Source: Girardia tigrina (taxonomy: Eukaryota). Taken from it: a stretch of 64,000 nucleotides of DNA. The stretch is taken from positions 1 to 64,000 of the forward strand of contig MQRK01217620.1 of assembly GCA_001938485.1 (NCBI GenBank). The letters are read 5' to 3'. Numbering within the stretch: position 1 is the first letter of the stretch; the number at the start of each line of letters is the position of its first letter. Under the pieces are notes generated by a model. That model was not told the origin of the DNA. It did no database searches and saw nothing but the letters and a program-made list of their open reading frames with translations. Positions 10,099-41,501 of this stretch are shown piece by piece. Both the position numbers and the translations under genes were made by a program.

Positions 10099-11887
10099 TT
10101 ATTTTTTGCACCGCTTCTCATTTTTCAAATCATCAAAATTTGGTATAAAATTTTGGCTTGATGTAATTTTTAAAATTGATGCTAAATGTTCTTCAGTCAA
10201 TCTAGTTCGCTGGGCAGTTTTATTCATCTTCATTTGTGAAAAAAGCTGTTCACAAATATATGTGCTACCAAACATCGATAATATGCGAATAACAAAATGT
10301 CGAATTCTTGGAAAACGATCTGCGGGTAAGTATTCGTAAAATTCTGGAATACCAATATTTTTGGTTCAATAAAGTGTCACATCGTAGTTCTATAAACTCC
10401 ATTTGCAAACTTTCATCAATACTTTCAATGTCAACAGACATCGGAGAGCACAAAATATTTAAATGAGACTCGCTATTTTGAAAATCCGAAAACCTCTTTT
10501 CAAAATATTCTTCCAACATCTTTAATTGTTTCTCAAATTTGTCAAATTTTAATTCTGGATGTTCAAGCAAGAGTCTTAATACTTGAATAATTTGATAAAT
10601 TTTCTTTTTTTATTTGTATTTGCCACAGGGATATCTTTTGCTTGAATGTATTTATTTGGTCATACAATGAAGTTATGAGCAAGTTTCTACCCTGAAGATT
10701 AATATTGAGTTGACTGAGATGCCCAGTAATGTCAACTGAGAAAGCCAAATCATGTATCCAATTAACATCTTTCAGTTCAGAGCAGTCATAACTTTTAATT
10801 TCTAAAAAAAAGTACGATTTCGTACAACAGTTGTAAAAATCTTCTTAAAACTTTATGAATTGAAAGCCAACGAACTTCAGTATAATATGGCAAATCTTCG
10901 TATTCAGATTCCACGTCATTCAGCAATGACATAAATTCCCGATGGTTTAATCTACGTGCTCGAATAAAATTAACAACTTTAGCAACTGTTTTAAATACAT
11001 TATCAATTTTAATTACTTTTGAGCATAAGACTTGCTGGTGGATAATACAATGGAAGTGTTGAATAGATTTATTATGATGGGTTTTAACATAAGCTTTTAG
11101 TCTACCAACGACACCACGTGTACTCCAGTCATAGAAGGGGCTCCATCAGTTGCCAAAGATACCAAGTTATTCATTGGAAGATTATATTTTTTTAATAGCA
11201 ATCATAAGTGCATCGAAAATATCATCTCCAGTTGTTGTACCATGCATTGGAATTACTTCTAATAGCTCTTCAGTTATTGTCATATTCCGATCACATCTTC
11301 GAATAAAAACGGCTAACTGTGCTATATCTGTTAAATCAGCACTCTCATCGATTGCAATTGAAAACTCTTCAAAATTTAATGCCACTGAGCGAAGTTGGTC
11401 TCTTAAATTTGAAGCAATGTCAGTAATTCTATTCGCAACTGTATTTCGGGATAAACTAATGCTTTTAAATTTATTTATCATATGGAGGCATAACTCTTCA
11501 GCTGCTATTATTAAACATTCACTGATGAAATCGCATTCCATAAATGATTTTGATTTTTTGCAATTGCATGCGATAACCGATAACTAGCTTTTACGGCGGC
11601 AACATCTTCTGCAACTGGTTTAGTGAAAATGCTTTGTTGTTTACGAAGAACTGCTTTTAATTCTTAATCAAATTTTCCTCACGCATTTTTCCAACGATAT
11701 TTTTATATTCTTCATTATGGAAGGTATTGTGATGCCTTTTGTTATTGCACACCAAAATAGTTTGTCGACATATCAAGCAAAAAATTTTACCTTTTTCTTG
11801 AAGGAAAAAATATTTAATTTCCCATTTTTCTTGAAAGCAACGATGTTCACTTTCAATCGATCGTTTTTTACTCGTACTTGGCTTCAT
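10099..11887 (-). pseudogene. Frameshifted hAT transposase (GTF2IRD2/EPM2AIP1-like)
   Basis: Fragments: FQEKWEIKYFF..CLIC (BED-like), SLSRNTVANRI, FSIAIDESADLTDIAQLAVFIR, HGTTTGDDIF, MFGSTYICEQLFS. Several frameshifts. Confidence 0.9.
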
Positions 11888-13066
11888 CTACAAATTGAAG
11901 GGCTTTAATATTGTAATATTAAAGGAAAATGCATATTCTTACGGTCAAGAAATCGTTTTTATGAAATCACTTCAACCACATAAAACACAGACAGACAAAG
12001 ACGAAAACGCACATGATAATAAAATATATTTAAAAGTGTGAAGGTCAATGTGAAATCACAACTATAGAAGCATCCCGAACCTTTTTAGGACCATCTGCTA
12101 TCACCTCCCCATAGTTTCGCAGTAGACAGAGCGTTAGAAGCGCGTCGAAGAAGCTAAAACTAACGTATAACGGAACAAAACACATAAAGTACCGACAGGA
12201 CTTACACAGTGATCCGAATTGAAGAGTCAGCCCTCCCCTGATAGAGCTACGCGAGAGACACCTGCAACAATAACGCGTCCGAAGATTGCGTCGCCCTAAG
12301 AAAAGTTATTAGCACTGAAGTAGATTTAAATTAATTAAAAACCAGACGAAAAATAACAAAGTCCCTTACTGGATTTTTCAATGAAGCTAGGAGGTCATCC
12401 GACCCTCCCATGAATGAGCATCGTGAGACGAGTCCCTGAATGAAACTCACCAAGTCCTAATACCTTCTTGAGCAGAGATATACCCCTGTGAAAATACGAA
12501 AATTAATTAACAAAAACAAAGCCCAATTAAAAACTCACCATGAATCAAGAATCACCCGAAAATTTCAGCCGAGTCATCGCTGAGGCAGCCGCACACAAAT
12601 GTCCAGATTTGAAGGTGTTCCATGACACACAGGCTAGGAACCTATAATAAAATAAAAAATTTTCAAAAATTAAAAATTCTTAAGAAGACACGCTTACTCG
12701 GCCGTCCAACCAGCATTGTAGAAGTTTCTAGACTTCTTGTTGACAGCAGGCGATTGGTGGAGTTGAGACACCCCTACACGAAACCTAGAATATAAAAGGG
12801 AATCACTTTTCCAGACAGTGCGCACTTATTGACCAACAATTTTATAAAAACATCTTGTTTGAGCTATTATTTGCACACACCAACCTTAAGCAGAATTTCA
12901 AACGCACATTTTGAACGATTCGAACAATTCACATTTTAAGAACATTTCCAAGAGCATTTCCTAGCGCTATTTTGGAGGTTCAAAACTACCATTTGAGAGC
13001 ATATCGAGAGTAGAAATCGACGTGGACGAACATTCTCCGGATCCAGGAAATAAAGCGAATTGTAAT

Positions 13067-15030
13067 TGTTCGGTTTCGTTATAATTGGAATTGAAAAATA
13101 ATTAAAGTTTATGTTTTTTTTGTTAAATTTAGAGTTTTCGATAAAATTAGAATTTAAAAATAAGTAAATTTTATTAACAAAAAAAGATAAAAAAATTTTT
13201 TTTATTGTTTTTAAATGAAAATTAAAACGATATATATATTTATATGGTTATATATATATATTGAAACGGACAAAAAAAATTAAGTTTGTTTTAACGTTTT
13301 AGTTAAAGTTAATCAGTGATATTTAAAAATCTCTCGGTAACTCCGGAGAATTTTGTCGAAGTTGTAATTGTCATATAATAAAAAAATTTGATGAAAATGG
13401 AAATCTCAGTGTTTCGATAACCTGTTTGAGAGGAGAGATTTGTATACGTAAAATATTTGTATCTTTAGAAAATACAAAAGAAGGATCACAATTGAGGAGA
13501 AAATTAGTCAAAAGAAGGAATCGGAGGCAGGAAATTTATCCAAATTGAAATTTAGAAAGAAAAGAAAACCAACAAGGGAGGAAACACAGATTCGTAGTGT
13601 CATGCAGCTTTAAGGTAATGTTTCTTCAGATAAAAATACACTCTGGAGATCGTCGATATTTGCGCCTTCAGTGGGATGACGAAGAGAACGAGGTGGTACG
13701 GTGTGGATCAAAAATCGGTCATGGGAAGGAATATAGTGAAGACGAGAGAGAAGTACTGTGCGAAAAGAGAGTTGATCCTCCTGCGTCGGATCAAGGGGGG
13801 AGTATGTTCGGTTTCGTTATAATTGCAATTGAAAAATAATTAAAGTTTATGTTTTTTTTGTTAAATGTAGAGTTTTCGATAAAATTAGAATTTAAAAATA
13901 AGTAAATTTTATTAACAAAAAAAGATAAAGAAAAAAAAATTTTTTTATTGTTTCTAAATGAAAATTAAATTGATATATATATTTATATGGTTATATATAT
14001 ATATATATTGAAACGGACAAAAAAAAATTAAGTTTGTTTTAACGTTTTAGTTAAAGTTAATCAGTGATATTTGAAAATCTCTCGGTAACTCCGGAGAAAT
14101 TTGTCGAAGTTGTAATTGTCATATAATAAAAAAAAATTGATGAAAATGGATGTTAATTTGGTTATTACCAAAGAATTATTCATGTATGAATTCAAAGAAT
14201 TCGATTATTCAAAGAATTATTCGATTATGACTTTAATGCGGATTATTTTGTAAAGACATTTGTAGTTAATCACATAATAATTCTCAATCGAAAATTGCAT
14301 GTCAAATTTTGTGAAGAAATTCATGATAAATGGTATGAATTAATGCGAATCTTTCAAGGTTGTAGAAACAGTATGGGAACGAAGTCTTGGAAAATAATCA
14401 CCAACAAACACGGTGTTAAACCGACCACTGACGATCACGAAAGCGACAGTGATTCGCGATTGCAGAGATACGACGTTTACGTTACTTCGAGAGTTCATGG
14501 AGAGTGTGCGNNNNNNNNNNNNNNNNNNNNGTTGAATTGTATCGCTCTCGATTACGATCTGATTTCGATTCCTGGGAGATTAATTCAACCGGATTATTTC
14601 GTCGGTGGCTCCTCAAGTGGTTCTAATGATTGCAAAAAAGAGATCAAGTGCTCAGATATTCCCAAATCGGTCGGTGCGCTCGGACGATTACTAAATGTAT
14701 GTCCTTGTATAATTATTGTGTTTATTTATATNNNNNNNNNNNNNNNNNNNNNNNNNNNNNNNNNNNNNNNNNNNNNNNNNNAAAAATATTATCAAAAATA
14801 AAAATAATAAAGATAAAATTAAAAATAATAATAACAATAATAACAAAAACAAGAATAAAAATATTAGTAAAAATGATAAAGATAAAAATAATAAAAATAG
14901 AAAATTTAGTCAAAACATAAATGACGATAAAAATGACATTGACGTAACCGAACACTTTCCTCCCACCTTGGTGACCCGCAGGGGGTCAATATATGATGAA
15001 AGCTTCCACTGCGCTGCTACTGCATCAACA
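13067..15030 (+). mobile_element. Internally deleted BEL/Pao LTR retrotransposon nested in E1
   Basis: TGTT...AACA ends; 5-bp TSD GTAAT (13062-13066, 15031-15035). 13067-13400 is repeated at 13805-14150 (truncated 5' LTR vs 3' LTR), with a purine tract AAGGGGGGAG just before 13805. Internal FKVMFLQIKIHSGDRRYLRLQW is a Pao RT motif. Confidence 0.85.
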
Positions 15031-15193
15031 GTAATTAATTTAGTTACTTTTATTTTTTTATTGTTGCAATAAAATTTTATGATGATAAGTTTTAATGTTA
15101 TTCCTTAATTTTAATTGATTTTAATATATAAACCGAGTTAATAGTTTAAGAGGAGTAGAAAGTAGTCGTCACCGCCGCCGTCCTTCGCTATAG

Positions 15194-15367
15194 ATGTCCC
15201 GAATCGATTTTCAAACGATAGAGCCGCCAGAGTTCGTGGGGGACCATACGGTCCTGATAATCGTTGACATAATGTCAATTTCAATGGAGGCGTTTATCAG
15301 AGGCGAACACAGCGAATCGTTCCTCGACGGACTAGATTCGCCCCTTCACGTGCAGCGAACAATATAG
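15194..15367 (+). CDS. 57-aa small ORF of the long-LTR family (E1 copy)
   Basis: MSRIDFQTIEPPEFVGDHTVLIIVDIMSISMEAF...DSP aligns without gaps to the N-terminus of the E2 ORF (M1,S2,Q7,H18,V20,I23,D25,S28,I29). Below the ORF-track cutoff; translated by hand. Confidence 0.6.
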   Translation: MSRIDFQTIEPPEFVGDHTVLIIVDIMSISMEAFIRGEHSESFLDGLDSPLHVQRTI

Positions 15368-18114
15368 CGACAAAGACGAGGGAAATTCTGCTCCGCCGAA
15401 ATCGGCCGCAAACCTTAACATTTCAATCTTATAAACCAAAAAATTTTATTGAACGTCGTTTTAATTGTTATTAAATCAATATTTAAATTATTTGATGTGT
15501 ATATCTTGATATGTTTTTGAGAAAGTTAATCGACTAGAGATAATGACGACCTTATGTATAGGAAACTTAATTCAGTAGAAAAAAACAATTAAGGCAAATT
15601 ATCCGAGTTGGTCGTGAACGTAAGCATAGCGCGACTTCGATAATAAGGTTCGATGCAAAAAATCGTGAATCTAGGCGAATTTCGATTCCGCGTTGCTAGT
15701 TAAAGGTTGAATTCCGATAATTTAAACAAACGTTTTTTTATGACGTTTATTTATTCATTTATATTTATTTTTATACGCTTATTTACTTTTAACTTAACTT
15801 TATACGTTTACTATTTATAATCGAATTTAACTGGTTTTACTGAAAATTCTGAATATAATTTTATAAAAATAGTTTTATTAGTATTTTAAAAGAAATCGTT
15901 TTATTTTTAAATCACCAATTCGGTAAGCGGGAACTGATTTGGGGAAACCAAGGTTTTAAAGAAATTTATGAAATAAGTAAATGTAGTTTAGGATTTAATT
16001 GGATTGTCACTTAGTAACTGAACGATTTACGATTTAATAACTCCTTGAGAATCGCTTCAGAAAGCGTATGATATGGAATTAATCTAAATAGAACTAATCT
16101 ATTTTATAATATAGGAATATGAAGTTGTATGAAGATGAGGTGAAAATCTTTGAGTAATATTCTTGCTACCAAACTATAGAATATTTCAATATTGAGGTCG
16201 ACATTTTGAGGTTTGAAAGTGGTTCCCAGAACTACCTATTAACTCTGAATTTTATGAGAACATAGTAGGGATAATAAGCATAGTTTAGAATCATCCCCGA
16301 GCGGCGCTCAGCTAGATGGGGGCCCATAGCCAATCCCGTCTTTATCAGAACCCGAAGGTCCTTCAAACCCGGCACTGCTAGGCAGATGTCGGGCGAGAAG
16401 AAACGTCCGACCCATTATATAAATAAATACAAATGAATATCAAAACAGACGTTTGGTTGTGGCTGACCCTTAATAGCCACTGGGGGCTCAAGAGCTTTCA
16501 AAAATGTTTATGCTCGAGAGTGTCGTGACAATATTCTGTCTTAAGAAAGAAAATACTAATAAAACTCACCGGATTAAAATTTATATTTATGAAAAAAAGC
16601 TGCTCAAATTAGACCTAATGAAATTCGAAAACATAAAAAAACAATAATATCTAAACAAATTTCCTAACTATTTAAATTTAATAATTGTTGATGTGAAAAA
16701 TAAATAGAAATGCACTTGTATAAATTTTCACGAAGATTTGTTTTTATTTTTTCAATAAATTTGATTTTTAAAATAGATTTTATTTAGAAAATTTGAAAAA
16801 TTTGTTAAAATTTTAAAACCATTGCGGGCCGCGAGTTTGACATGCCTGTTCTATATCATTAAAATCACTTTGGGGTAAACGAAATATCGTTTCCTCACTT
16901 ACCCAAATTTTAAATTCAACCCTATATGGTTAAGGGTTTCAACGAAAATCAGTTGTAAATATTTTTGATTTATAATTAATATTTTTATTTAAAAGTACTT
17001 CTTAGTCTTTTAATTGTAGTGTTATTCTATAAATCCCTTAGATGCGCCAACAAAAGTATAAATCGGAAGAGTTTATATTTTTAAATATTAAATTATATTG
17101 TCTATATAAATAAATAAAGAAAATAAGAAAAGTTTAGATATATCTAAAGAAAAGCAAATTTAGATTAGTTAGAAGAAATAACAAATAAAAGAATAAAAAT
17201 AATAAATAAAAATTATTTATAAAGAGAAAGTAATTAAAAAAATAGAATATAAAAGGTGTTGGAAGTGCTGTTTGAAAGCTAGAAATATAACATAAAGGAA
17301 AATAAACATAGTTGAGAAAAACTCACCCGATGACGAAAAATCGACCAACCGCCCCGCCACAAGCATGAAACACGGCAGGGTATCCGCGAGGGTGACCCAT
17401 CGGTGACTGAAGGACTCACGAATAGAGACAATAAACCTTAACAGGAAAAAGAATTAATTAAAACAAACCCGAAAAATAATAAAGTTTCTTACCGAAACAC
17501 CCTGTGGAGCTGAGAGATCATCCGACCCCCCCGCATAGCCCCTCGCGAGGCGGACCCCTGAATGGAACCCGTGGAACGCTGGTCGATCCTCGATAGAAAT
17601 TATTCACCCTTAAAGAAAAAAAATTAATTAAAAACCAGACAAAAAATAACAAAGTCACCTACTGAATTACCCAATAGGGTTAAGGGGTCAACCGACCCTC
17701 CCACGAAAGATCTTCGCGCGGGCAATCCGTGGACGAAACCCGCGAAGTCGTAGGACCACCCTGAGAAAAGTTATAGGCCCTGAAAGATCAAACAATTAAT
17801 TAAGAAAAATAGAAAATTAATTAATCTTACCATGAGTCAACCCAGAATCCGAAAATAATCGTCAGCTGACGAATCATCCATGAATCAGCAGCAGGCATGT
17901 TTCAGAGATTTGGGAGTGTGTAAAGACACAGGAGCATTGGATCCTATAATAAAATAAAAAAGTTTTAAAATTTTCGAAAAATTTTCGAAGCACACTTACC
18001 AGTCTAACCAACCAGCATCGCAGAAATGTCAGACAGTTGGTTGGCGAGATTCGGTTGGACAGAGGAGGACGACAGGATAGCATATCTACAATATAAAAGG
18101 AAAATCATTTTTAA

Positions 18115-18391
18115 CCTTCACTCTGTGCATTGAAAATTTTCCGGCGTCTGTGCATAGGGGTCAATCGTACCCCATATACATTTTGATATATTTTGTAAGG
18201 AAAACTAACAAAATTTTAGTTTTTATTTAAATTTTTATTAATTATAATAACTTATTAATAACAAAAGATTATTAAACTTTAATAAATGAAATTTATTAAG
18301 CTTTGGCAGTTTAATTTACTTGGCTCAATTTTTTTTAAATCGCTTTTTAAATAGACTGGGGTCCATTTGACCCCAATGCACAGAGTGAAGG
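18115..18391. mobile_element. piggyBac-type MITE inserted just downstream of the E2 TATA box
   Basis: Perfect 18-bp TIRs CCTTCACTCTGTGCATTG / CAATGCACAGAGTGAAGG; TTAA TSD on both sides; subterminal GGGTC...ACCCC palindromes. Confidence 0.9.
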
Positions 18392-18836
18392 TTAACGAAG
18401 TCGCACAATTTTTATAAACAAATCAAACCCACGTGTGCCGTTACAACAACTATTAGAAACCAACCGCAATCTCCCGAGCGATATTCAAAACAGAGTTTAC
18501 CGTACCGACAGACGTCCCGAACTCATAACTCGACCCACGACTGAACGCTTCTACGTACAGACGCATCGACTGGTGAAGATTATTAGGCACCGATTAAGCA
18601 GTGAATTTCCCAGCAGACCTTCGGATACCAACCAAATTGTAATTGTTTTATTGATAATCTTGTTGATTTTATTAATCTAAATAAACAAATTTAATACCGA
18701 TATTCCTTTAGTTATTAATAATTATTCAGAATGTTTAATTAATGATTAATTTACATACCGTACATCCGTTTTTATTGTAAAGTAGATCCAGTAGAGTCGT
18801 CGTTACAGTCGTCGTCGCCGCCGCTCCTTGCCGTAA

Positions 18837-19175
18837 ATGTCCCAGACTAGCCTTCAGCCGAGTAAATCGATCAGGGTCGAGGACGGTCACATTGTCATAA
18901 TGATCATTGATGCGGGATCGATACAATTAAACCATGTATCGGAGGCGACCGCGTTGAACGAATTTCCGGTAGAGCGAAGCCACGAGTTCACGTCCGAACC
19001 CGATAGTCCCGCTGCGAACAACGTCCCCAGCGCTGAACATCAACTGGTTATCATCGACGTGAAGTCGATATCGATAGATGACATGTCGGGACTGACTAGT
19101 TCCCGTGTAAACGATAACCCACCGATGTGGGGTGAAAACGTTCAAATCGGCGCCTGCGACCTTCAGAATATTTAA
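18837..19175 (+). CDS. 112-aa small ORF of the long-LTR family (E2 copy), motif duplicated
   Basis: Contains HIVIMIIDAGSIQL and HQLVIIDVKSISI; preceded by the conserved GTCGTCGCCGCCGC leader. Confidence 0.6.
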   Translation: MSQTSLQPSKSIRVEDGHIVIMIIDAGSIQLNHVSEATALNEFPVERSHEFTSEPDSPAANNVPSAEHQLVIIDVKSISIDDMSGLTSSRVNDNPPMWGENVQIGACDLQNI

Positions 19176-21757
19176 ACAAATACATTTTTTTACTATTCTA
19201 GGTCTTATTATGTTATGAATTTAGGAATTGTTATTGTTTCGAATTTAGAATTATTACAAAAAACTAAAATTATTATCGAATTTTATGAATGATTTAATTA
19301 ATAAAATTTCCATTTCTACTGTTATTATGAATTTTACCGGATTCGGAATTTTTAAGGAAAACTAAAGCTCTATGAATAGTTTAATTTAATTATGATTTTA
19401 GGAATTAGGATTATGATTGATCTAATTTTTGGAACTAATAGAATTCTATCATTTACTATAATTTCACAGGAAATAATTTTACTACATAAACCGTTTACTG
19501 ATCTTATAAAAAACCAAACTTCCACTAATTTTATTTTGATACTAATTTCGACTCCGACCGTTGTGAATAAAATTTAAAATTTCTATTACGGAACAACCTC
19601 CATTTCTATACAATGATAAATATTTCGTAAGTTTAAATGTGGGAGTCGACTAAAGAGGTTCGGGATTGAATAAAATCTTAAAGCAAAATTTAATTTTATC
19701 ACTGATGTCACAGCAATTTGGTCTTGATTTGGTGATTTGCGATGAATTTTGGTCTTATAATTGGATCTGACGATTTTTAACGTACAATTTTAATTTAATT
19801 CTAGGTTCGAGCGAATTTACCATCAACAACCTTATACTTAAAACCCGTGAGTGTTAAGTTTGCCGATGAAATTGCTATTAGCAGTGCCACTTGTTACAGT
19901 AAAATTAATTGACTGCAAATAGATTTACTAATATGAGTTAGCGCTAGTTATTATAATTCTCAATTGAAACCCTAGCAAATCAAGGTGATTCAATTAAAAG
20001 GCTAGTAGTTAAGGTAGCGATATGTATCTGAAAGGACCTCCTAATAATAAACCCTATGACAACAACATGTGATGATGGCAAGAATACATAATGGTACCAC
20101 GTTACAATTCGATCATTTGGGCAGATAGTAAGCTGTGCCATCTAGACAAGCATAAGTGATGCATTCACCGGAGGAATATACAAATATACAGAGTGGTAAC
20201 ATACTCTTATCGATACTGACCCAGGTGGGGGGCCCATAGCCTATCCCATCTTTAGCCGAACCCGAAGGCCCCTTGAGCTTGGCACTGCTAGGCAGATGTG
20301 AGGCAAGACATGAGGCGTCCGACCCTATATACAATGTCATTAAAACCGAAATAAATTTAGAGCGGGTTGTGGTTGACCCTTAACAATCACTGGGGGCTCA
20401 TGAGCTTTTAAAAATGTTTACACTCGAGAGGGTCGTGACAAAGGTCATTATTAATTATGAAAGATTCAGATTTTAAAGTTCAAAACCTAACAAAAGTTAT
20501 TTTGAAATTCGATCAAGAGTGAATCTGATTGTGCGTCTCAGTAGTTAATTGAAATTAAATCTGATTACGCGTCTATACTAAGACTATATTGCGAACTGTT
20601 TTGATCAAATTTCGATTGCGAATTCGATACTTAATAGTATAAAAGTCGACATTCACTAGAGACAAAAGCAGAAAAAAATCAAACTATTGAGTCGGTAGAA
20701 GAACGACTGAATACGACCAAAATTGAGATGCATAAACCCATATTCCTAATATATTATATCTCGTTATATAAATCACGCTGTAAAGTGTGAAACAAAAGTT
20801 TTAAAATATAAACAATCCGAGTTGTCGTTAAGGTTCTCGGTTTTTAAATATAAAATCGACCAGGGGTCAAATAAAATATAATTTTCTCTTTTACTTGTAA
20901 TTAAATCGTGAATACTAAAATATATTTTTATAAAGAAAAATCACTGTGTTCTATTATTGATTTTTATAAACATACCAAACACTCAACAAATAGTATAAAC
21001 AAATAAAATGCAAAATTGCGGAAGAAGCGGAGGTGGTCAATCTGGATAGCCTGCATTAATACAATTCTGTTGGTACAGCGCACTCTCCGAAAGACGCCCG
21101 GAAGCCTATGAAATCGATCGAAAACCGTAGATGTTAAATGGTTAAATTAACCCAGATTTCGAATAATGGCGATTTTGATTTTTCCTACACGGAATTTCAT
21201 GAAAAATTTCATGAAAATTTCAATATTATACTAATTTATTTGATAAATGACGATTTCTATCATTTATTTCTAATTATATTTCTAAAAATCAATTTAGGTT
21301 AAATTTGCAAAATTTCGTTATCATCTGATTCACGGTTTTTCAGTCAAGCTCAAATTTTACTATGATCAAATATATGCTGATAAAATGAGAAATATTAGAG
21401 AAAAATGTCAGTAAATCCGCGTAAAGTTGAGATAACTCAGCATAGTCCGCATCTGTCTGTACAGCGCCATTGCCGAAAGGCCCTGGGAGCCGATTTATTT
21501 GACTGACTGTTAAATATCCATAGAATTCAAAACAATTGATAATAAAGTATAATAATTACGATTTAAAATAGAAATTTTAATTTAAAATAATAAAGAAATT
21601 TAAATTAAAATAATTAGAAATTTTAAATTTTAAATAGAAACTTTCAAAGTCGAAAATTCAGCTCACCCGTCATGTATGATCGGTATTTTTCCAGTAATAG
21701 AATAAAATTTTTTAAGTAATTATTTTATAATTGTTTTTAAAATGTAAAATTGATTAA

Positions 21758-27865: not shown

Positions 27866-27959
27866 AATATAAAAAGTTTAGATACAACTTACTTCATATA
27901 GTATTTTCTGTTCGTATTTGCTGTTTACAGTTCTAATACTGTGTTTATACAATAACTGT

Positions 27960-29172
27960 TCCATCTTTTCGTATCTTTTTTTGTATCTCACTATCAAATA
28001 CTCCATATACATACATTGTAATTGCTTTATCTTATGGAATGCCTTATGGAATTTTAAATTCAATTTTAAATTGCCTGTTCGTGGCATTTGTATTTGATCA
28101 ACATCAAAATCAGGTGTCAAGACAAATGTAAAGTAGGGGAATTTTGTTTTGAAATCATCCATAGTGATTCCATTATTCATATTTTTATTCACGAGTACCA
28201 TGTTCAATATTATAGACTTGTAGTATGCTTCAGTAAATTCATTCTTTTCAAAGTCAATTTTATATGAATCTATATAATCAATTCCTCGAGATAGGGTTAG
28301 GGAGCCAATATTACAGTTGTCAAATGCTGAGCAATATGATGCATAATATCGACTAACTTCGTTACTATCTTGAAATGTTACCAGCACAAATTTCGGTAAA
28401 CGTTCATCATTGAACAGATTGTCCTTATATTCACCATGTGATCCTTTAGAAATTGAAAACTGAATAGTTCTTGCTTTTCGAATGGGATATATAGAATTTT
28501 GATTATCAAGACACATAATATGAGCCAATCTTACTGATTCTGTTGTACGAACACGTCGTATTAATAACTTTGAACTCTCAATATATTTGAGGCATAATCT
28601 CTGTTCCAGTACCACTCCTTTCATATTGAAAGATAACTTTACTTTCATTTCGATGAATCTTGATTGTTATATTGATATTTGGTATGAGATATTTCGGTTG
28701 CTCAAAAAAGTCCAAATTTAACGGTCAGCATAATATCATCAAGGTTGATTTCTGCAACCATTTAACACTTTCAGTTGCCTCACCACACTTTTTCGTATCT
28801 GAACTTAGATTTAATGTAGTATCAATGATAGCCTTTTGATAATAACTATCATTAGTATCCTCAATCTTTGTATTGTTGAGAAACACGGTCATATCTTTAC
28901 ATAAGCAATGAAAGAGGTAATTGCTCTGGGTTAATTTGGAAATGTCAACAGTAATGTCTTTTCTTGATTCATCAACTGCTTTTATTTTAATGGTAAGCAT
29001 TATATCATTCATATCTATGTATTCATCTTCACTACCGATAATATCAAACTCTATGAGATTTATTATACCCACTAATACTATCCTTAGGGTAAATATCTTC
29101 AAAAGCATATGATTATATAACATCTTGTGGCGGAGCTGCACTAAATATGTCCAATTCCGATTTGGTACTCAT
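27960..29172 (-). pseudogene. Polinton/Maverick (adintovirus-type) major capsid protein, frameshifted
   Basis: MSTKSELDIFSAAPPQ, IEFDIIGSEDEYIDMNDIMLTIK, NYLFHCL..VFLN, DNLFNDERLPKFVLV, FTFVLTPD, RTGNLKLNLKF. Confidence 0.85.
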
Positions 29173-31642
29173 TCTGAGAATATATTTTTCATACGTTTTG
29201 TTTCTTTGTTTATATCTAAACCTTTCCTTTTTCTTCCTCCACCACCTTGATCCATTATTGAAACAGCCTCACGAAAAGCACCTTTAGCATTGGACTTAAT
29301 TTCTGGTAATATATCAGCAGCAGCTTCCTTCAATATGTTACGACACGACATTTATATCACCTTACATATAGCACAAAGAATAAGGGAATAGTCTAACTCG
29401 ACTATTCCCCAGTATGTTTAGATAGGCCCCATCTAACATAGTTAACCTCATGAACCTTAAAGGCTCAGAAATACCACGTCAGACGGAGCCGAAGACTCGA
29501 ACCACTGCCAGATGATCGTAACTCATGTGAGGACCTTAAGAACCCTATAAAATAACAGCATTATTCAAATACCTTAAATTAATTAATAAAATTAATTACT
29601 GGAAAGTGCAAGCGCACTAGAGACCCGTGAATCAGCCATCTGCTGACTTCCGCGACAGTTGATGATAGGCAGCCTCGGATCGCGAACCTATAAACAAAAT
29701 AAATCAGAAAAACAGAAAGACCCCTCCCAACGATACCTTTGTAAACATGATAACCACAGACGGACGTCGGAGAATTAACGACAACGGCAGCGACATCCTG
29801 GACGAGTAACCTATAGATTAACAGATGTCAGATAAACAGTCGTCAATGAAAATGTCTAGCTTGCAATGATGATTTCCCCCGTTCCTCCCACTGAAAAATC
29901 CTGTCACTGAATAGCGGATAAACATCTGTCACACCTGTTGTTGATATTTCGCTGTAGATGAGCAATTTTATCATACAGTAACGACCCCCTCCCTTCCATC
30001 TTATCACTTAACAGGATATCGGCGAACAAACACATGTCAACAGACACATACAGATTACCCGAACGCGTCGGACAACGTATGCGTCTAATTAGATATAAAT
30101 ACTCGATGCATCTTTGCATGCAGGCACACAAAAAACGCACCTTTTACCAATATTTACGCACTTTTATACTACAATTTTATTTTACAATTTATAATCATAA
30201 ATTTGAACTATTCCTGACGATTATATCACGCAATATTTACTATCTATCAATAAAACGGAACAATTAGTGACTAGCAAGTATGATCTGTTCTTGAGTTTAA
30301 TTTTAATTTTTTATTCTGTTTATTATATTCCATTCTCATTTGATTTATACTCTCATTCATTTTGTTATTATTATCTCTTACAAACATTAAATATAACTTA
30401 TTAAAATTATTCCTTTTATTTAATCCGTATTTGGTTAGGAGTTCAGTAGATTTTATTAGAGCTATGTACTGCTACTTGATTAATTAGAGGTTCGAAAATA
30501 TTGAAATTTATCGCTGGTCTCTATCTACCGCTCCATGAGGGGGTTCCGAAGAGGAGTTTTGAGATGAATAACGATCTTAGATTGAGTACTGATCGTGTGA
30601 GAGACGTGACGAAAAGGGGTAGAGGTATGACAGGTGAGTGTGGCACACTGGCAACAAGAGAGACCGCGATGTAAACGTCGAGGTCTTATGTGTACATAAT
30701 GTAGATAGAACTTCAAATAATATGTGGTAGAATGGTTTGTCGAGTTGTTTTATTTAAATTCCTCCTTAATTGGAATAATTCTAGTTTCGATGTAATTTCT
30801 ACACTAAGAATTATTAATAACTTTTCTTGAACAAAAATAATTCAGCGGATATGTGAATCCTAACTATCGTTCTAGTTTAGTTTGCGCTTAATCTCAATGT
30901 AAAAATTTATTTAAATGAATTACCTACGGAGTATTTCATGATGAATAATAGTAAACATTATATACACATTATAACTATAAACATATTCGAAAATCCATAT
31001 CTTAGTGATAACGTCGTGAATAAAATGAAGACTAAAATAAATTGAGAATCGTTATTATAATCAATGAAAACTATTGGTAGTGACGAAGAAGCTTTTGGAG
31101 ATGTCGAAGGTCGATCACGAAAGTTCGATTGTCGCCTATTTCCTCGAGGCTCTCTTCGTCTGACGTAATTAATAAATGAATACATCAAAGTACTTACGAA
31201 TAATGGAAAACAATATCAACCCCTCGGGCAACACCCGTTACTGGTTAGAACCCGAAAGCGCTCCAAAGCGCATAAAACTTGTTGATATGTGTGGAGCAGG
31301 CGCGTCCGTTCCCTTAAGTAACGAATTCAAAGCGTGCATGAGTTGCCGTTGAACTCAAAAAACGGATGGGGGCTCTGAGTCAACAAAAATGTTGTCGAAA
31401 GAGGGGAACGCGACAAATGCTTCAACAGGCTTTTTAGTACGATTCAAGATATTTTTACCAGCACGTAATATTGCTTTACCAGCAATCTTTGCTACAGGTA
31501 TACCGAATTTCCTCATTATAGGAATTGCCTATCTGCCTAATGTAGCCTTCCAATTACCTCCATACCGTTTACCTCTAAAGTATGGAAGATTACCACCCTG
31601 TAGAGGACCACAATACATTCGTACAATATCTCTATCAATCAT
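29169..31642 (-). pseudogene. Polinton basic core (pVII-like) protein split by E3 (31642-31416 plus 29335-29169)
   Basis: The joined halves read MIDRDIVRMYCGPLQGGNLPYFRGKRYGG...KPVEA-LKEAAAD...DQGGGGRKRK...NIFSE*, with QGG/GG motifs. Its stop overlaps the MCP ATG (ATGA). Confidence 0.7.
29336..31415 (+). mobile_element. E3: divergent 2.08-kb solo-LTR-like element
   Basis: TGTTACGA...CGCGACA ends; TSD AATA/AATG (1 mismatch). Removing it restores the Polinton ORF. TATAAATA at ~30094; 3' end shares GAACCCGAA, GCGTCCG and TGGGGGCTC with E1, E2 and E4. Confidence 0.8.
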
Positions 31643-31751: not shown

Positions 31752-32568
31752 TAGGGTTGCCAGATGTCCGGTTTTGAACCGGACAGTCCGTTAAGTCAAC
31801 TGGTTGTTCAGTATAAAAAAATTATAAAAACCGGACTTACATTTGACGGTATTTCTCCCGAAGCTTATTTCCACAATCTTCAAATATGAGGTAATCGTAT
31901 TTTTTTATTTTTTTGGTCGCTCAAAGTTTTGAAGGACAAATAAACATTCCTAAATGGTAATTTTTTTATAGTAGTGGGCTATGGATAAATTTATTTTGGT
32001 TTAATACGAAATACAAAATATTAAAGTATTAATTCAAAGTTTTCTGCTGGTGATAAAGGGATAAATTAAATAATAAATTTTGTGGTATTTAGAGTTTGAA
32101 CTATTAAGTGAAAACTTTAATATTAAATTTGTTTTTTTATAATTTTTTTTGCCTCAAAAAAACACATTGAAGCTGAAACCGTTGCAACTTCTTCTCAACG
32201 ATTAACATCTTTCTTTGCATCGAAAGATAATTCCCAAAGCGATGCAGTAGCCCTCGCTGAATTGTTGCATATTTATCATGGTGTAAAACACCATTTATCA
32301 TACTTGGCTCAGGAATGTGGAATTAAAATTATAAAACAGTCCTTTTCTGATTCTCAAATTGCTAAAAATGTTACAGCTGGAGGTACAAAAGCTTCGGCAG
32401 TTGTACAAAATATTTTGTACCCTTTTTCAATTGAACTTGTGATAGAAGATTTTAAAAACAACGTACCGTTTTCTATTGTTACGGACGCGTCGAACAAAGG
32501 TAATCGTAAGCTATTTCCTGTGGCAATTCAATTTTATTCTTTACAAAATGGATTGAGCTTTAAAATAT
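31752..32568 (+). mobile_element. 5' part of a hAT (Blackjack-like) transposon
   Basis: Terminus TAGGGTTGCCAGATGTCCGG; transposase fragment YHGVKHHLSY..FSDSQIAK..TKA..FSIVTDASNKGNRKLFPVAIQFY. Truncated at E4. Confidence 0.75.
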
Positions 32569-32569
32569 C

Positions 32570-34562
32570 AATCGGGACCGGAGCGTCTAACAATCAACCG
32601 ACGAGCAAGCGATTCATAACCCGAAAGCGAGAACCCGAGAATTTCCGGCGCTAGGACGAATACCCGATTCAGAGCTAAACTAACGCCAGGGGAACCCAAT
32701 TACGCGTTGATACACGAAGTCCGACTACATTCCTCCGCGACCGATTTTTCTACTGGGCACAATTGTTATTGTCGATGTAAATTTAATTTTTGTATTTATT
32801 TGTCGTTTTATTATGAATTTCAATAATTTATATATTTATGAGTTTTGTTTATTTAACATTTTATTTAATCATACTCTATAGAAGTAGCTTACCTTTTCAT
32901 AGAAAGAATTAAATAGCGCCGTCGCCGCCGCCGACCGTCGTTCCCGTTATGAATTCTCACGTTACGAATCCACTTATCGAGCGTCTAGAGAATATTCTGG
33001 GGCTCCTCCCCGAGTCCGAGGTAGATGAGAACAACAATGCATTCCGAGCCGCATTGCCACTAATTATTATCGACGTGAGGTCGATAGCCCTGAGCGAGAT
33101 GCTCGAGTCGACTGGGCCGCACCATTTAGACTAACGGCGCGGAAGCTGCCCATCAACATTATGACTTAATAAATAAAGTTTTATAAACCGCAGTTTAATT
33201 CTTTCGTTCGATTTAATACTTACTTCAATTTTGTAACTTTAGGAATTTTATTAGTGAATTTTTATAATGAATATTAACACAAGTTTTGTTATTGAGTCTT
33301 TAATATTAGTAGTGAACTTGAATATCAGTTTTATTAATGAATGTTCGAGAGTATTTAATAGACGTGAAAACAAATTTAATTCGTGAATATGTAAGGGTAT
33401 TTAATCAATAATAAGCGGGAGTATAAATTTGCTAGCGAGTGTTTAGAACTATTTTAGCGCAAATAAGAAGCTCGAGTGAATTTTGTATTTAGTTTTTTTG
33501 TGTTACTAACAGCTCCTCTCTTAATTATTTTAATCAGAAAGGTTATAAATACCTTGGTTCGTAAATCCCGCAGTAACTCATCAAACGTTATGAATATAAT
33601 CCGTTCAACGGCAAGTATCATTTAAAATATTACTTAAGGTCGTTGATTAAAGTAAGGCATTAAAACAAATGCGAAGTCAGTCAATTTTAAGAAATTCGTC
33701 TTTTACTGATAGTTTTTCTTTTGCGATTTGATTACTATCGAGAGGTATTTCATAAAAAAAATTTTTTATATAAATACATATAAATCATAAATTGAGAAGT
33801 TTTACAGAATATTCTAACATTGGCCGAACGGAACTTAAATTCAAATTATCGTTAAATTCTTCTAGTTTCCTATTTTATTTTAATGATTTTACCACTAATA
33901 TTTTGGCGGGCTTCTCGACTCAATTAACAATTGTTAAGAACCAAGCGATAATTCCAAGGTTAATTCAATTTAAAACTCAGACGTTATCTGAGTTTCATCG
34001 AGTCATGCAGGGAAAAGCGAATTAAAGGGTGGGTATACTCGTGAATAGTTTAACGAGTTAAGCAATAATAAAATTTCAAGAACCGCCGATGTTAAGGAAC
34101 AGATTTGACAACAGGGCGTGAGGCGTCTGCTGTCGATAGCTGACCGATAAGATACTGTCGTACAACAAATTGAGTGGTGCGGATCTATTATACGGTTATA
34201 GCGAACCTTGACAACTTATATGTTTGAGCGCGTAAAAGTACAGAAATATTATCTCATAAAACACAATAGTACCACGACACATAAAGGTATAAGATACATC
34301 ATCCCCGAGCGACACTTTGCTAGGTGGGGGGCCCATAGCCCATCCAATCTTTACCCGAACCCGCAGGCCCTTCAGACTCGGCACTGCCAGGCAGATGTCG
34401 AGCGAGAAGAGGCGTCCGACCCATAAATAACTATATTGCATCATTGAGTATTAAAAAGTAGCATACGAATAATATAAACTGAAATCGGGTTGTGACTGAC
34501 CCTTAATAGTCACTGGGGGCTCCGAGCAAACCAAAACTGCTACAAACAAGTGGGTCGTGACA
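32570..34562 (+). mobile_element. E4: 5'-truncated copy of the long-LTR family
   Basis: Contains the sORF (32949-33134) and the conserved 3' region ending GGGTCGTGACA. Confidence 0.8.
32949..33134 (+). CDS. 61-aa small ORF of the long-LTR family (E4 copy)
   Basis: LIIIDVRSIALSEM motif; GTCGCCGCCGCC leader just upstream of the ATG. Confidence 0.55.
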   Translation: MNSHVTNPLIERLENILGLLPESEVDENNNAFRAALPLIIIDVRSIALSEMLESTGPHHLD

Positions 34563-34595
34563 AATCTCACTGGTCCGTTCATCGGGCACGCCATT

Positions 34596-35114
34596 GAGGA
34601 CATCGGATTTTTCTTCGACCTGCATCATTGTGACACTCGGATCAATTTTAGGTGGAAGTGGAATATGAATTTGATATTTAGCATGGTCGATTTCCACTCT
34701 CATTCTCTCTTCAATGTCGGTTGGAGCGACAGTTTCAGCCAAATCAACGAAAAATTTAGCAAATTGTTTCACATCAATAATATAATTAGGTTCTTCACTG
34801 TCAGCATTAATAATTTTTGTGCATCTCATTTCTTGCAAAGGATGTCCGCTCGATAAACAAACTTTATCCGCAACCAAGTCCCATAAAGCCGGCGCTTCTA
34901 ATCCCGTGTCCGATTTCTCAACTCCCGCCAATTCATTGACTCGTTTCAAGATACTTTGATTATCATCTTCACATTGTTTTATTTCTTTACTATATGGCGC
35001 AGCACCATAAGTTTTCAACAAGGCAATAATATCTCCTTCATCGAGCGATTTAATTAGTTTTTTATCCTTATCATCTTTTAATTTTCTCTGATCATTTCCC
35101 AGATAATCAGGCAT
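34596..35114 (-). pseudogene. PSMC2: Truncated 26S proteasome ATPase subunit 7 (Rpt1) N-terminal copy
   Basis: [86 protein letters not shown]. Stops before the AAA domain, has substitutions at invariant residues and is intronless over this span. Confidence 0.9.
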
Positions 35115-35443: not shown

Positions 35444-37280
35444 CGTGGTGTGGATTTCATTCTAGTTTATTTGGATGACATTCTCATCGGCAGCGAAAAC
35501 ATAGTGGAACACAAAACACACCTTGCAACTAGATTACAAATCCTTAAGACGAACGGGTTAAATCTCAATTTAAAAAAAATGTGAATTCAACAAAACTCAA
35601 ATCAATTTCCTTGGACATACGATCGAGAAGAATACAATCTATCCTATCAAAGAGAAAATCGAGGCAATAAATTCAATTCCACCTCCCAAAAATGTTCAAG
35701 AAATCAGAAGATTTTGTGGAATGGTAAACTTTTACCACAAATTTATTCCAAATTGTTCAAACATCCTAGCTCCACTCACTGACATGATTAAGAACAAAAC
35801 CAAACTCCAAATAATTCATTGGACAGAGGAATCGATCAAAACATTCAATCAAATCAAAGATGAATTAAATAACATCACAAAATTACATATGTTACAACCA
35901 GATAGTAATCTAACGTTAACCATCGAATTTTGGGATAGGTGCAGCTTTAACACAAACTCATGACAACCAAGAAGTTCCAATATCATTTTTTTCGCAAAAA
36001 CTTAACAAAACGGAAAGTCGTTACTCCACTTTTGATCGTGAATTGTTAGCAATACACAGATCAATCAAACACTTCCAAGATTATCTTGAACATCTAACTT
36101 TTACAATTAATACAGATCACAAACCTTTGACAAATGCATTAAACTTAAAAAATCCAAGTCCAAGACAACTTATACAAACATGTTACATCTCACAATTCAA
36201 CTGTAACATAAAATACATACCAGGTAAAACAAACATCGTGGCAGATTTTTTGTCCAGAAATATGGTTACTACAATAAATTTTTTCAATTTTTTAGACATT
36301 AAAGATTTAGAAAATAAACAAGACTCCACAATAATCGAATGTAAAGACCAATCTTTCATCTTAAAGAAAATTAAAAACATCTGGTACGACAAGTCAATAA
36401 CGGGAACCATTAGACCATTAATACCTGAAGAATTAAGATCTTTATGCATCAAAAACATCCACGAACTCGGACACTATGGTTTCAAAGCAACTTACCATAT
36501 ATTAAAACACCAAGTCTGTTGGAAAAATCTCAGAAGACATAAAACAATTCATTCGAAACTGTACCATTTGTAACAAGAACAAAATAACCAAGAGACACCC
36601 TATAAAAAAATCAATTACGTTGAATTAAACAAATTAGAACATTTACACTTAGATCTAACAGGTCCACTTCCACCAAACAGAAATTATAAATACTTATTAA
36701 CAATCATAGATAGAACAACCAACTGGTTCGAGATCATCAAACTCAAAGATATCTCTGCAAATTCCATCTGTAACAAATTCGAATCAGAATGGATAGCACG
36801 CTATCCACCACCAAAAAGATTAATTACAGATCAAGGGAAACAATTTTTATCAAAACAATTTCAAAATTTATGTGAAAAATTCAATATAAGGAAAATTAAA
36901 ACAACTTACAATCCACAATCAAACGGGAAAGTGGAAATTTTTCACAGATATTTAAAACAAACACTACGAACAAAATGCAACAACTCAGATTGGCTGGAGA
37001 CTTCCGGAAGTTTGTCTTGCACTCAGACTCAAACCAAATAGTCTTGATGATAAATCACCTTATGAGAAATTAGTTGGAGTAAGATTCAATTTTGAACTCT
37101 TTAAAAGAACAAGTGAAGAACATTCCAACAGCACTAACAAACAAACAGACGCAAAAACAGCATACGTCAAAATACAAAATACTAAGGGTTTTGACGATAG
37201 ATACGATGGGCCATACAATATAATTAAAACAGGCAAGAACACAGTAACACTCAATATAAACAACAAAGATAAAACGTAAA
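35444..37280 (+). pseudogene. Ty3/Gypsy pol remnant (RT, RNase H, integrase)
   Basis: VYLDDILI, RFCGMVNFYHKFIPN, RYSTFDRELLAI, TDHKPL, HELGHYG, HLDLTGPLP, ITDQGKQF, YNPQSNGKVE; frameshifted. Confidence 0.92.
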
Positions 37281-37345
37281 ATCTACGAAATATCAAACTA
37301 AACTAATACACTTATTGACACTCCGTTTTCCCAGGGGGGTGCTAA

Positions 37346-40039: not shown

Positions 40040-41501
40040 TCGGACTTTAGGTAATTTTTACAAGGGGAAGTATAGCAAAAATATAGTGCATAGCTCGGCT
40101 GTTCGGACCTTACGTCCGTACTAATCAGAAGTTACTCTCTGATAAAATTCTCATCGGCGGGATACATTCCCGAACTAAATACAACTTCGGAACCTTCCTC
40201 GTCGGGATTATTGCTTTTACGATTATTTTGGGGCATAGCTAATGGGTGACGACGACTGGGACGACGACAAGACCTAACTTTACTCGCTGAAACTAAAATA
40301 GGTCAGAATTTATTTATTAAATATATATTAAAAACAATTTACAAATTTATACATTTATTGCAAGACTATTAAAATATAAAATTCAATACGAAATCCCGTA
40401 AAATTACATTAGATTTAAATTTGATCTCCGGAGGAACGAATTCGCAAGTGGCTTGGGTTTCGTAGAATGATTCTCCAAATTAAATTAATCTGATCGTTCT
40501 CGTCAAGGTTCCTGTTGAATCTTGCTGTCTTTAATTTATGGTTCTCGAATTTGTGTCTTTGAATTACGTCTCAAATTTTCGTCTTCGAAATACGTCTCGG
40601 CTTTGTGATCTATAAATAACTGTCGTTTTTTGTTGTCAGATTTTGTGGGCGCTCTGATGAAAAACGATTCTTCTTTTATACTGTAGAGAAAAATGTTTGT
40701 TGCTTCTTCTTGGCCAATCAGGTTCTGCCAAGTACTCGTCTGAAAATTCTGCGATGCTGGTTGGTCGGGCTTGACGGTATGTCTTCAAAATATTCTTAAA
40801 ATTTTTATTTCATTTGCTTGCTGGTGTACCGCCGCACACTCTAGAATTTTTAGAGTTCGTGTGTGGCCGCGTCACCGATGATTCATGTAGAATTGTCAGC
40901 TGGTTGCTATTCTTGGAGTTACGGCTGACTCAGGGTAACTTTGTTTTTCTTAATTAATTTTCATATCTTTACAGGGTTATATCTCCTTTCGGAAATCTGT
41001 CAGTGCTTCACGGGTTCCACCCAGGGATTCACTTCACGAGGGACTACACGGGGATGGTCGGTTGACCTCCTAGCTCAAATGGATAGTTCGGTAGGCGACT
41101 TTATTTTGAGTTCATTTTTAATTAATTTTTGTTTCTCTCAGGATTCATACCCCTTCTCACAGCTCTTCCACACATTAACGGTTCGTCTCCAGGAGTGCGT
41201 CTCTTCTCACTCTATCTGAGGTGGGATGATTGTCCGTCTCTTTCTATAGGGTAAGTTTTTATTTGATCTCGTCTGATTTTCTTTATATCGTATTTTATAG
41301 CTCTACTGCGGTGTCTGCGTCATTTTATCAGTCTACGAGGGTTCGGGATCCTCTTCACAACACTAGTGGGATCAACCAAACTTTGTATTGAGCTTTTTAA
41401 GTATATGTATCGTATCAAAACCATTTTCTTCTTTTCTTATATAACGTAGTCGTATATTTAATCCTAATACTGTCTAGTTCAATGAATTTCAGACCGCAAC
41501 A
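40040..41501 (-). mobile_element. E5: inverted, 3'-truncated copy of the long-LTR family
   Basis: TATAAAAG on the minus strand at ~40680; exon/intron array on the plus strand homologous to E1/E2; disrupted sORF from 40236 (..RE*LLISTDVRS); candidate 5' end TGTTGC at 41501. Confidence 0.75.

Follow-up and report, generated by a model that had tools for sequence, protein, structure and literature searches.

A small open reading frame inside the long terminal repeats of a putative Burro-like retroelement of Girardia tigrina likely encodes an apparently undescribed accessory peptide

Do the long terminal repeats (LTRs) of a giant planarian retroelement carry a gene of their own, and what might its product do? 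The question was raised by a 64,000-nucleotide stretch of Girardia tigrina DNA (contig MQRK01217620.1 of GenBank assembly GCA_001938485.1, positions 1 to 64,000 of the forward strand), referred to hereafter as the window; the source assembly is AT-rich and comprises 1.43 Gb in 255,254 contigs. An initial annotation made from the letters alone had noticed a short open reading frame (ORF), E1, inside a long LTR, with relatives designated E2, E4 and E5, and had proposed an unannotated accessory peptide or a regulatory upstream ORF (uORF) with a core reminiscent of a SUMO-interacting motif (SIM). The ORFs, the LTRs and the associated sequence signals are listed in Table 1; E1, E2, E4 and the broken E5 occupy the same slot of the LTR in all four.

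Table 1. Features of the LTR ORFs and their surroundings in the window
Feature	Position	Strand	Basis or remark
E1 ORF, 57 aa + stop	15194..15367	+	translation; family dN/dS
E1 constrained core, codons 21-35 (LIIVDIMSISMEAFI)	15254..15298	+	family dN/dS, conservation
E2 ORF, 112 aa + stop	18837..19175	+	translation
E2 first motif copy, unconstrained (dN/dS 0.98)	18891..18935	+	codon model
E2 second motif copy, constrained (dN/dS 0.33)	19038..19085	+	codon model
E4 ORF, 61 aa + stop; core 33057-33101	32949..33134	+	motif at 33060
E5 ORF, ATG 40236, stop at codon 35, truncated by adjoining insertion	40085..40236	-	40085 end approximate, by eye
E1 LTR, part aligning to solo LTRs L033/L034; 5' end unplaced; ~1.96-kb secondary insertion 13068-15026 within predicted intron	12350..16530	+	alignment
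E2 LTR, part aligning to solo LTRs L012/L014/L023; small inverted-repeat insertion 18111-18395; 5' end unplaced	17433..20440	+	alignment
E4 LTR, 3' part	32567..34562	+	alignment
E5 LTR, 5' part, canonical TGTTGCGGTC start	40085..41501	-	alignment
TATA-like box, E1 LTR (start site not mapped)	12791..12797	+	conserved box
Candidate 5' splice site GTAATT, E1 (predicted)	13062..13067	+	donor-like word
Candidate 3' splice site, E1 (predicted; neighbouring AGs possible)	15149..15150	+	acceptor-like word
GTC/GCC-rich leader before E1 ATG	15165..15193	+	composition, leader pattern
TATA-like box, E2 LTR	18092..18098	+	conserved box
Predicted AT-rich intron, E2 (no spliced contig seen)	18639..18785	+	splice words

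The relationship between the ORFs was weak at the level of single sequences (pairwise tblastn of E1 against E2, E 0.66) and clear between the family profiles, which matched over residues 1-33 (hhalign probability 94.8%, E 5.2e-8). All nine gap-free identities reported earlier for E1 and E2 (M1, S2, Q7, H18, V20, I23, D25, S28 and I29) are present, a number reached in 272 of 100,000 shuffles with M1 fixed. These identities are real, but they pair E1 with the first motif copy of E2 (dN/dS 0.98), whereas the motif under selection is the second (0.33). That second copy, LVIIDVKSISI, was found as described, as were LIIIDVRSIAL in E4 and LLISTDVRS after the premature stop in E5. A further pattern claimed to be common to E1 and E2, E.S..F....DSP, did not hold: its alignment needs an eight-residue gap, it is no family feature and codons 34-67 of E2 gave a dN/dS of 1.03. 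The description of GC-rich islands behind a GC-rich leader in AT-rich surroundings was borne out (GC 0.49-0.50 in the ORFs, 0.63-0.77 in the leader and 0.17-0.25 in the flanks); that these surroundings align poorly is true between subfamilies, but within subfamilies they align at 74-93% over 0.5-2 kb.

In a DNA search the full frame was retained at 20/30 E1-type, 20/30 E2-type and 24/25 E4-type loci, counts to which the copy in the window and some duplicated records contribute, and two of six E5-type loci were open through the motif. Selection of loci by their leader gave 47 that were read (27 given and 20 chosen for differing leaders), representing 44 distinct starts; with three at contig ends and one unrelated start set aside, 40 were evaluable, and 31 of these open at least 57 codons, 21 of them exactly 57. 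Neutral simulation on the family tree, itself built from intact copies, left a mean of 6.5 of 29 lineages free of stops, with a maximum of 21 in 1000 runs.

Selection was estimated with a purpose-written codon model from copies picked as intact, one of which (L196) is misaligned after the core, under the assumption of a single tree, which module swapping between LTRs violates. In 16 E1-type copies the ORF frame gave a dN/dS of 0.50 and the mirror frame, which contains 20 stops, 0.60, with values of 1.26-1.45 in the remaining four; every frame other than that of the ORF carries stops in the E1, E2 and E4 types. Over the whole ORF the E4 type gave 0.52 (20 copies; 0.28 in its core) and the E2 type 0.82 (14 copies, not significant) or, in a further estimate, 0.88 (LRT 0.8). 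In a 57-codon set of 30 copies, left from 37 after a 92% filter and with DNA identities of 32-92% (mean 58%), constraint was strongest in codons 21-35, with a dN/dS of 0.22 when synonymous rates were free (LRT 80) against 0.92 for codons 2-20 and 0.54 for codons 36-57; the corresponding values under a shared synonymous rate were 0.28 (approximately 0.23-0.33), 0.63 and 0.60. Indels shared between copies numbered two in-frame and one frameshift within the ORFs, the latter in three records identical over 2 kb, against 31 in-frame and 107 frameshifting ones in the flanks, and no frameshift was common to independent copies. The initial annotation had named dN/dS near 1 together with frequent frameshifts in the consensus as counting against its reading; this combination was absent from the 57- and 61-aa families and was found in part in the 112-aa family (0.88 over the whole ORF, with constraint confined to the second motif). 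On these sequence comparisons the LTR ORF is, with high probability, coding and selected on its amino acids. The earlier proposal of an unannotated accessory peptide in the long LTR is supported by this selection and by the anatomy of the element described below, and a real, apparently undescribed LTR-encoded accessory peptide is the likely interpretation.

Two readings without a functional peptide have to be set against this. A neutral relic whose frame has stayed open because it is GC-rich and its copies are young would fit the 112-aa family, which is near neutral outside 16 codons, and the private stops or frameshifts seen in many copies, but the 57-aa copies are far from young at the identities given above and have nevertheless kept both length and core, while other GC-rich blocks of the LTR (the antisense exon-like blocks described below) have stops in all frames in two of the three blocks with at least 10 copies, plus frameshifting gaps. 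The dN/dS values led to its rejection for the 57- and 61-aa families, and overall we find it barely credible. The other reading is a nucleic-acid element, in which the codons for I-D-x-x-S-I would form a TCGAC-N5-GTCGA palindrome serving as an RNA hairpin or protein-binding site, with the peptide motif as a by-product. The palindrome is visible in E2, E4 and E5, and apparent compensatory pairs occur in E1, the first E2 motif and E5; against this, no pair beat column shuffles in the 30 copies, which were selected without the motif (best P 0.095 and 0.125), the codons of invariant residues differ freely in their third base, the synonymous rate is higher in the core than elsewhere (6.1 versus 4.4, LRT 5.1) and 17100-20500 contained no Rfam match at E 0.1. 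Since covariation was no better than in shuffles and synonymous change was faster in the core, selection appears to act on the peptide and not on the bases; the hairpin was rejected and is in our view very improbable.

The LTR 3' ends in the window are clear (16530, 20440 and 34562), and the 3' end gave 3,256 first-look candidates genome-wide. The 5' ends of the E1 and E2 LTRs do not have the family start TGTT[AG]CGGT, so that no target-site duplication was assigned to either; ends and duplications placed by eye (at 11912 for E1 and 17257 for E2) were dropped as non-canonical. Copies elsewhere are solo LTRs of 2.2-3.1 kb (TGT[TC][AG][CT]GGT...GACA) with TG...CA ends and a 4-bp duplication in 20 of 34 rows; several rows are one insertion listed twice and the remainder mostly have no 5' end inside the locus. 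After the ORF-slot LTRs L026 and L208 lies the primer site TGGGGGCTCAGCCGGGAT, with variants after L069 and L078, and its complement is the end of the host tRNA-Pro(TGG) genes (five genes in three loci scanned). About 55 nt before each LTR end (approximately 20388-20397, 16479-16487 and 34511-34519), CACTGGGGGCTC was seen to resemble the start of this primer site.

One contig (C77885) joins a 112-aa-type ORF, the LTR end, the tRNA-Pro primer site and small internal ORFs, and the internal DNA of a further contig (C231567) is 94% identical to it, linking the ORF-bearing LTR to Gag, Env and Pol. On the latter, whose copy is in pieces, eight ORFs of 106-155 aa precede a Gag with Pfam matches to Ty3_capsid (E 1.1e-6, narrowly below the cut-off) and zf-CCHC (E 8.8e-4); downstream, seen as a piece separate from Gag, a single 1,503-aa open frame contains Monjiviricetes_fusion (E 4e-81), an aspartyl protease and RVT_1. 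The polyprotein also has a ubiquitin fold by Pfam in 15 of 15 cases, scoring as PF00240 and not as PF11976, and a VIDLT/EIDLT word kept across subfamilies; a BCL2-like domain gave no Pfam hit at E 0.01 in the element pieces. The order of the element is thus LTR, tRNA-Pro primer site, row of small ORFs, Gag, ubiquitin folds, Env, protease and reverse transcriptase (RT). This order matches that of the Burro/GYPSM1 giant gypsy elements of planarians in the available part of their description (PMC6431247), which also gives thousands of copies, a Gag with a CCHC knuckle, a ubiquitin-type fold, a fusion domain of mononegavirus type that shares its frame with protease and RT, and accessory ORFs upstream of Gag. 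By domain order set against that published description, the element would be a Burro-like giant gypsy. The same part of the description differs in giving a MATH-domain accessory ORF upstream and neither an LTR ORF nor a row of eight ORFs of 106-155 aa (PMC6431247); a MATH ORF seen on contig C249900 is located outside the LTR, and we did not attribute it to the element.

The row of eight small ORFs between primer site and Gag was noted at L141-L142 on C231567, L095 and L155; several of them look coiled-coil-like by eye, they are separated by AT-rich spacers of about 80-100 nt, and the row gave no Pfam hit over the cut-off. A YAG stands 0-4 nt before the ATG in 7/7 of the small ORFs checked on C231567 and not before Gag, which suggests alternative cis-splicing from the LTR or operon-like trans-splicing. 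In the polyprotein pieces L247-L286, two ubiquitin-like stretches (the first by Pfam, the second by eye) flank the VIDLT/EIDLT word, with subfamilies about 50% identical, and open frames across this region reach 4,142 aa in the genome.

Within the LTR a conserved TATA-like box precedes the ATG of the ORF by about 420-520 nt. The interval is occupied in turn by a GC-rich block, an AT-rich one of about 110-150 nt and the GTC/GCC leader. Donor-like words stand at the start of the AT-rich block in 30 of 40 sequences (shuffle mean 9.1, maximum 19; reverse strand 13) and acceptor-like words at its end in 31 of 46 (shuffle mean 10.1, maximum 19; reverse strand 3), compared with 12/44 and 9/43 acceptor-like words in flanking controls; because both exceed shuffles or controls, an intron is predicted here. 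The pattern of leader plus ATG, which requires ATGYC and so leaves E4-type and MNP-type starts (see below) outside, had 275 genomic matches and one control match. The stretch was represented in part in nine of 12 listed sequencing runs, none of which contained more than 0.25 of its words; two leaf-litter libraries included small shares, from which neither host nor habitat can be concluded. Contigs of four runs (X1, X3, X4 and X7) were mapped over 18400-19190, with U3 and the LTR 5' end outside this interval. X1, which is RNA only by guess, covered 30/30 bins, one contig spanning nearly the whole E2 ORF with a 9-nt in-frame insertion and three crossing the predicted acceptor unspliced; X3, on record as RNA, covered 8/30 bins, none in the ORF, and X4 and X7 covered none. 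No contig mapped to this interval contained a joint for the predicted intron. An 85-nt skip (18517-18603), bounded by CG..GT, was not accepted as an intron and is read as a deletion carried by another copy.

The slot is not always filled by the peptide. Of 17 LTRs that were examined through their E2-like ends (four earlier ones plus 13 of 20 newly retrieved, loci already known to contain the E2 ORF being left out), not one matched the ORF of E1, E2 or E4. In eight of them the leader is of the same kind, but the ORF behind it starts MNP and has no motif (28 codons in five cases); another contains a different ORF, of 101 aa, and in the remainder the slot is deleted, gapped or unaligned. The MNP ORF showed no third-position excess (0.31/0.38/0.32, six copies), and one MNP-type LTR is on the contig that supplied the Gag/Env/Pol link. 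The presence of this ORF in the slot implies that the module behind the TATA box is exchangeable and that the peptide is supplied in trans or is optional; a motif-less 28-codon ORF in another LTR subfamily likewise means that the peptide is not needed in cis. The MNP subfamily (L287, L293, L294, L297, L302, L141, L155 and L091) was seen to combine an E2-like U3 and 3' end with a different middle module, which points to module swapping between LTRs.

Conservation in the 30 copies is concentrated in residues 23-34, with I23 and I29 invariant (30/30 each), F34 in 29/30 and S28 in 28/30, while third bases vary. The AlphaFold model of the peptide is of low confidence (pLDDT 61, pTM 0.27) and mostly extended, with two six-residue helices, and the longest hydrophobic run is about seven residues. 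A short constrained core within a loosely constrained, unfolded chain is what leads us to regard the core as quite probably a linear docking motif. In the 57-aa family an arginine at residue 55, three residues from the C terminus, was also noted in 27/30 copies; we presume that it could serve as a C-terminal degradation signal.

A four-residue core with at least three V/I/L, a loose pattern searched as a regular expression, occurs in 25 of the 31 leader-selected ORFs (I-I-V-D-I in E1), and all 27 ORFs matching a wider core have one to four D/E in the 12 residues upstream, with S/T after the core. This agrees with a loose SIM definition, a V/I/L core of four residues with acidic and serine flanks, as given in the available part of PMC12751080, and the probably disordered chain is a further likeness. 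The peptide differs from a basic SIM in that its conservation runs eight residues past the core (S-I-x-L-x-x-F); extended SIMs exist, each needing case-by-case demonstration according to the same text (PMC12751080). As S28, I29, residue 31 and F34 lie outside the four-residue SIM core, the S-I-x-L-x-x-F half needs an extended SIM or another partner, and the E5 subfamily is without the S-I-x-L half. The host SUMO was sought with PF11976, which yielded ubiquitins within the best 150 of 2,210 candidates (translations were made for 11 loci), and with a degenerate SUMO pattern, which matched nothing. PxIxIT, RVxF, LxxIxE, LIR and PDZ motifs were rejected by eye for misfit of register with the conservation profile.

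From this pattern match, and with an export-signal spacing fitting as many copies as the SIM, we tentatively predict that the core binds host SUMO through a SIM. The ubiquitin fold and the VIDLT/EIDLT word of the polyprotein were also counted in favour of this reading. A spliced LTR transcript, predicted from sequence signals for start site and intron, would be translated into a largely unfolded accessory peptide of 57-112 codons with a 15-residue selected core (translation being argued from selection), and the core may add a beta-strand to SUMO, a partner suggested by the pattern. The SUMO-bound peptide might then compete with SUMO-dependent silencing of the element, by analogy with piRNA silencing in flies, which needs SUMO and the SIM-bearing SetDB1/Wde (10.1101/533091, available part); in planarians SMEDWI-2, a nuclear PIWI protein, represses BURRO1, as stated in the available part of PMC8532177. 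The peptide could act in trans, given one LTR lineage without the motif. Anti-silencing of the element as the outcome is nonetheless unlikely on this analogy. Improbable, too, is the whole picture of a SUMO-decoy micropeptide in the transcribed part of the LTR that any solo LTR could express as well, with hundreds to thousands of 'dead' solo LTRs supplying a suppressor of SUMO-dependent piRNA/H3K9 silencing in trans and the peptide gene standing first in an array, led by the LTR and alternatively spliced, that encodes about nine small accessory proteins.

Docking of a translated accessory peptide on a partner other than SUMO is possible though doubtful, and is favoured by the span of the invariant residues, 23-34, which is wider than a SIM. 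The core can be read as what we take to be a leucine-rich nuclear export signal, I23-xx-V26-xx-I29-x-L31 with Rev-type spacing; the spacing I..V..I.L occurs in 27/31 ORFs, as against 25/31 for the SIM pattern, and also in the second E2 motif and E4, and help with RNA export might be required by an element that has many ORFs led by an acceptor. On the other side, the core follows a proline and contains many beta-branched residues, its model is extended and not helical, and apart from R55 (27/30) there is no conserved arginine-rich stretch for RNA binding. The segment S-I-S-L-E-S-F presumably also resembles a PCNA box, but in the E2 and E4 types an M stands in place of F34; further candidate partners are the ubiquitin-fold domains or small ORFs of the element and other copies of the peptide itself. 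A regulatory uORF, the second reading of the initial annotation, would have leader and start capture ribosomes on the genomic RNA and throttle the downstream genes, the core being a nascent-peptide arrest sequence. Leader and ATG do persist where the 28-codon motif-less ORF replaces the peptide, the LTR ORF would come first on RNA started in the LTR, and ATGs between TATA box and ORF cluster, by eye, in the predicted intron. We consider it unlikely, as the leader is 915-1,779 nt ahead of the LTR end, the constrained core sits mid-peptide or at varying distance from the stop with no fixed C-terminal position, and the small internal ORFs checked have a YAG of their own, so that they would not depend on scanning past the LTR ORF.

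Searches for homologues beyond the genome were almost entirely negative. E1, E2 and E4 matched no Pfam family at E 1, and PDB sequences gave no match at E 10; among near-length proteins in a collection of 5.8 billion, none of 71 candidates was confirmed for the 57-aa alignment and none of 378 for the 112-aa alignment, and none of 333 pattern matches to E1 in metagenome contigs was confirmed. The Pfam, PDB and protein-collection searches thus gave no named homologue. The single match among 1.84 billion representatives, P0003, an unnamed JGI/IMG singleton 46% identical to L228, is by its sequence a metagenome member of the peptide family; its DNA context was searched for and not found. A literature search, over listings and the openings of abstracts, returned no description of an ORF in Burro LTRs, and the available parts of PMC11410931, PMC6109357 and 10.1101/2023.11.02.565355 contain nothing on one; Grohme 2018, its supplements or Repbase may annotate such an ORF.

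The nearest working analogue is sORF1 of the Drosophila MDG1-group elements. As described in the available part of 10.1101/2025.03.14.642691, sORF1 and sORF2 are small, unspliced accessory ORFs that precede gag; a low dN/dS first drew attention to them, and their products are predicted to be a helix-turn-helix protein and a membrane fusogen. The sORF1 protein is made from a short early transcript and found in a subnuclear compartment. The LTR peptide resembles them in being a small accessory ORF ahead of gag with low dN/dS, and differs in lying within the LTR, in its predicted intron and in the absence of a long helix from its model. Neither a helix-turn-helix nor a transmembrane helix with polybasic tail was found in the peptide (two six-residue helices at low confidence, hydrophobic run of about seven), and the homologue searches gave no sequence match to these sORFs.

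Since the peptide is encoded inside the LTR, solo LTRs carry its ORF. The nearest positional analogues are Sag of MMTV and Nef of lentiviruses, whose reading frames sit upstream of the TATA box in U3 and are expressed from the 3' LTR. They share with the LTR ORF a protein-coding frame inside a retroelement LTR that is reached by splicing (predicted here), but the LTR ORF is downstream of the TATA box and four to five times shorter. Expression of MMTV Sag was eliminated by alteration of the LTR, according to the available part of the source. The peptide is a member of neither group. Small accessory ORFs are already known from gypsy elements, and one was recently identified as a fusogen; a peptide gene under selection, located within the LTR and downstream of TATA, would make solo LTRs potential genes and not inert scars, and such elements may hold many more unannotated small genes than a polyprotein-centred description suggests. 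The 15-residue core would offer a small, testable entry point to the way in which a retroelement that ranks among the largest of animals copes with silencing by its host, and should the SIM guess fail, the peptide would still represent a new accessory-protein family without a named homologue.

Several neighbouring features were noted. On the minus strand at 17327-18085, five GC-rich exon-like blocks bounded by AG/GT and separated by AT-rich gaps of about 50 nt run antisense from the TATA region, and are homologous to antisense exon-like blocks at 12300-12790 and 40690-41250. Their splice words are conserved, the first block has one frame open in 10/10 copies and gaps shift the frames; they are likely mostly non-coding antisense RNA from a two-way promoter. 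Elsewhere, multi-copy ubiquitin domains occur in L235-L245, preceded by a fragment that we take by eye to be Hsp90; these are probably captured host pieces in another mobile element. An intronless fragment of 26S proteasome subunit 7 (PRS7_OB, E 1.9e-26; 34503-35114, minus strand) runs into the end of the E4 LTR and is likely a processed copy. ORF pieces at 27878-29330 on the minus strand resemble, judged by eye, a Polinton-type capsid region; they had no Pfam support. Named by eye were also the small inverted-repeat insertion inside the E2 LTR (18111-18395), which has TTAA ends, a DNA transposon with repeated termini cutting E5 (38491-39955), a hAT-like transposase piece beside E1 (11182-11541) and a decayed ordinary gypsy pol (35460-37340).
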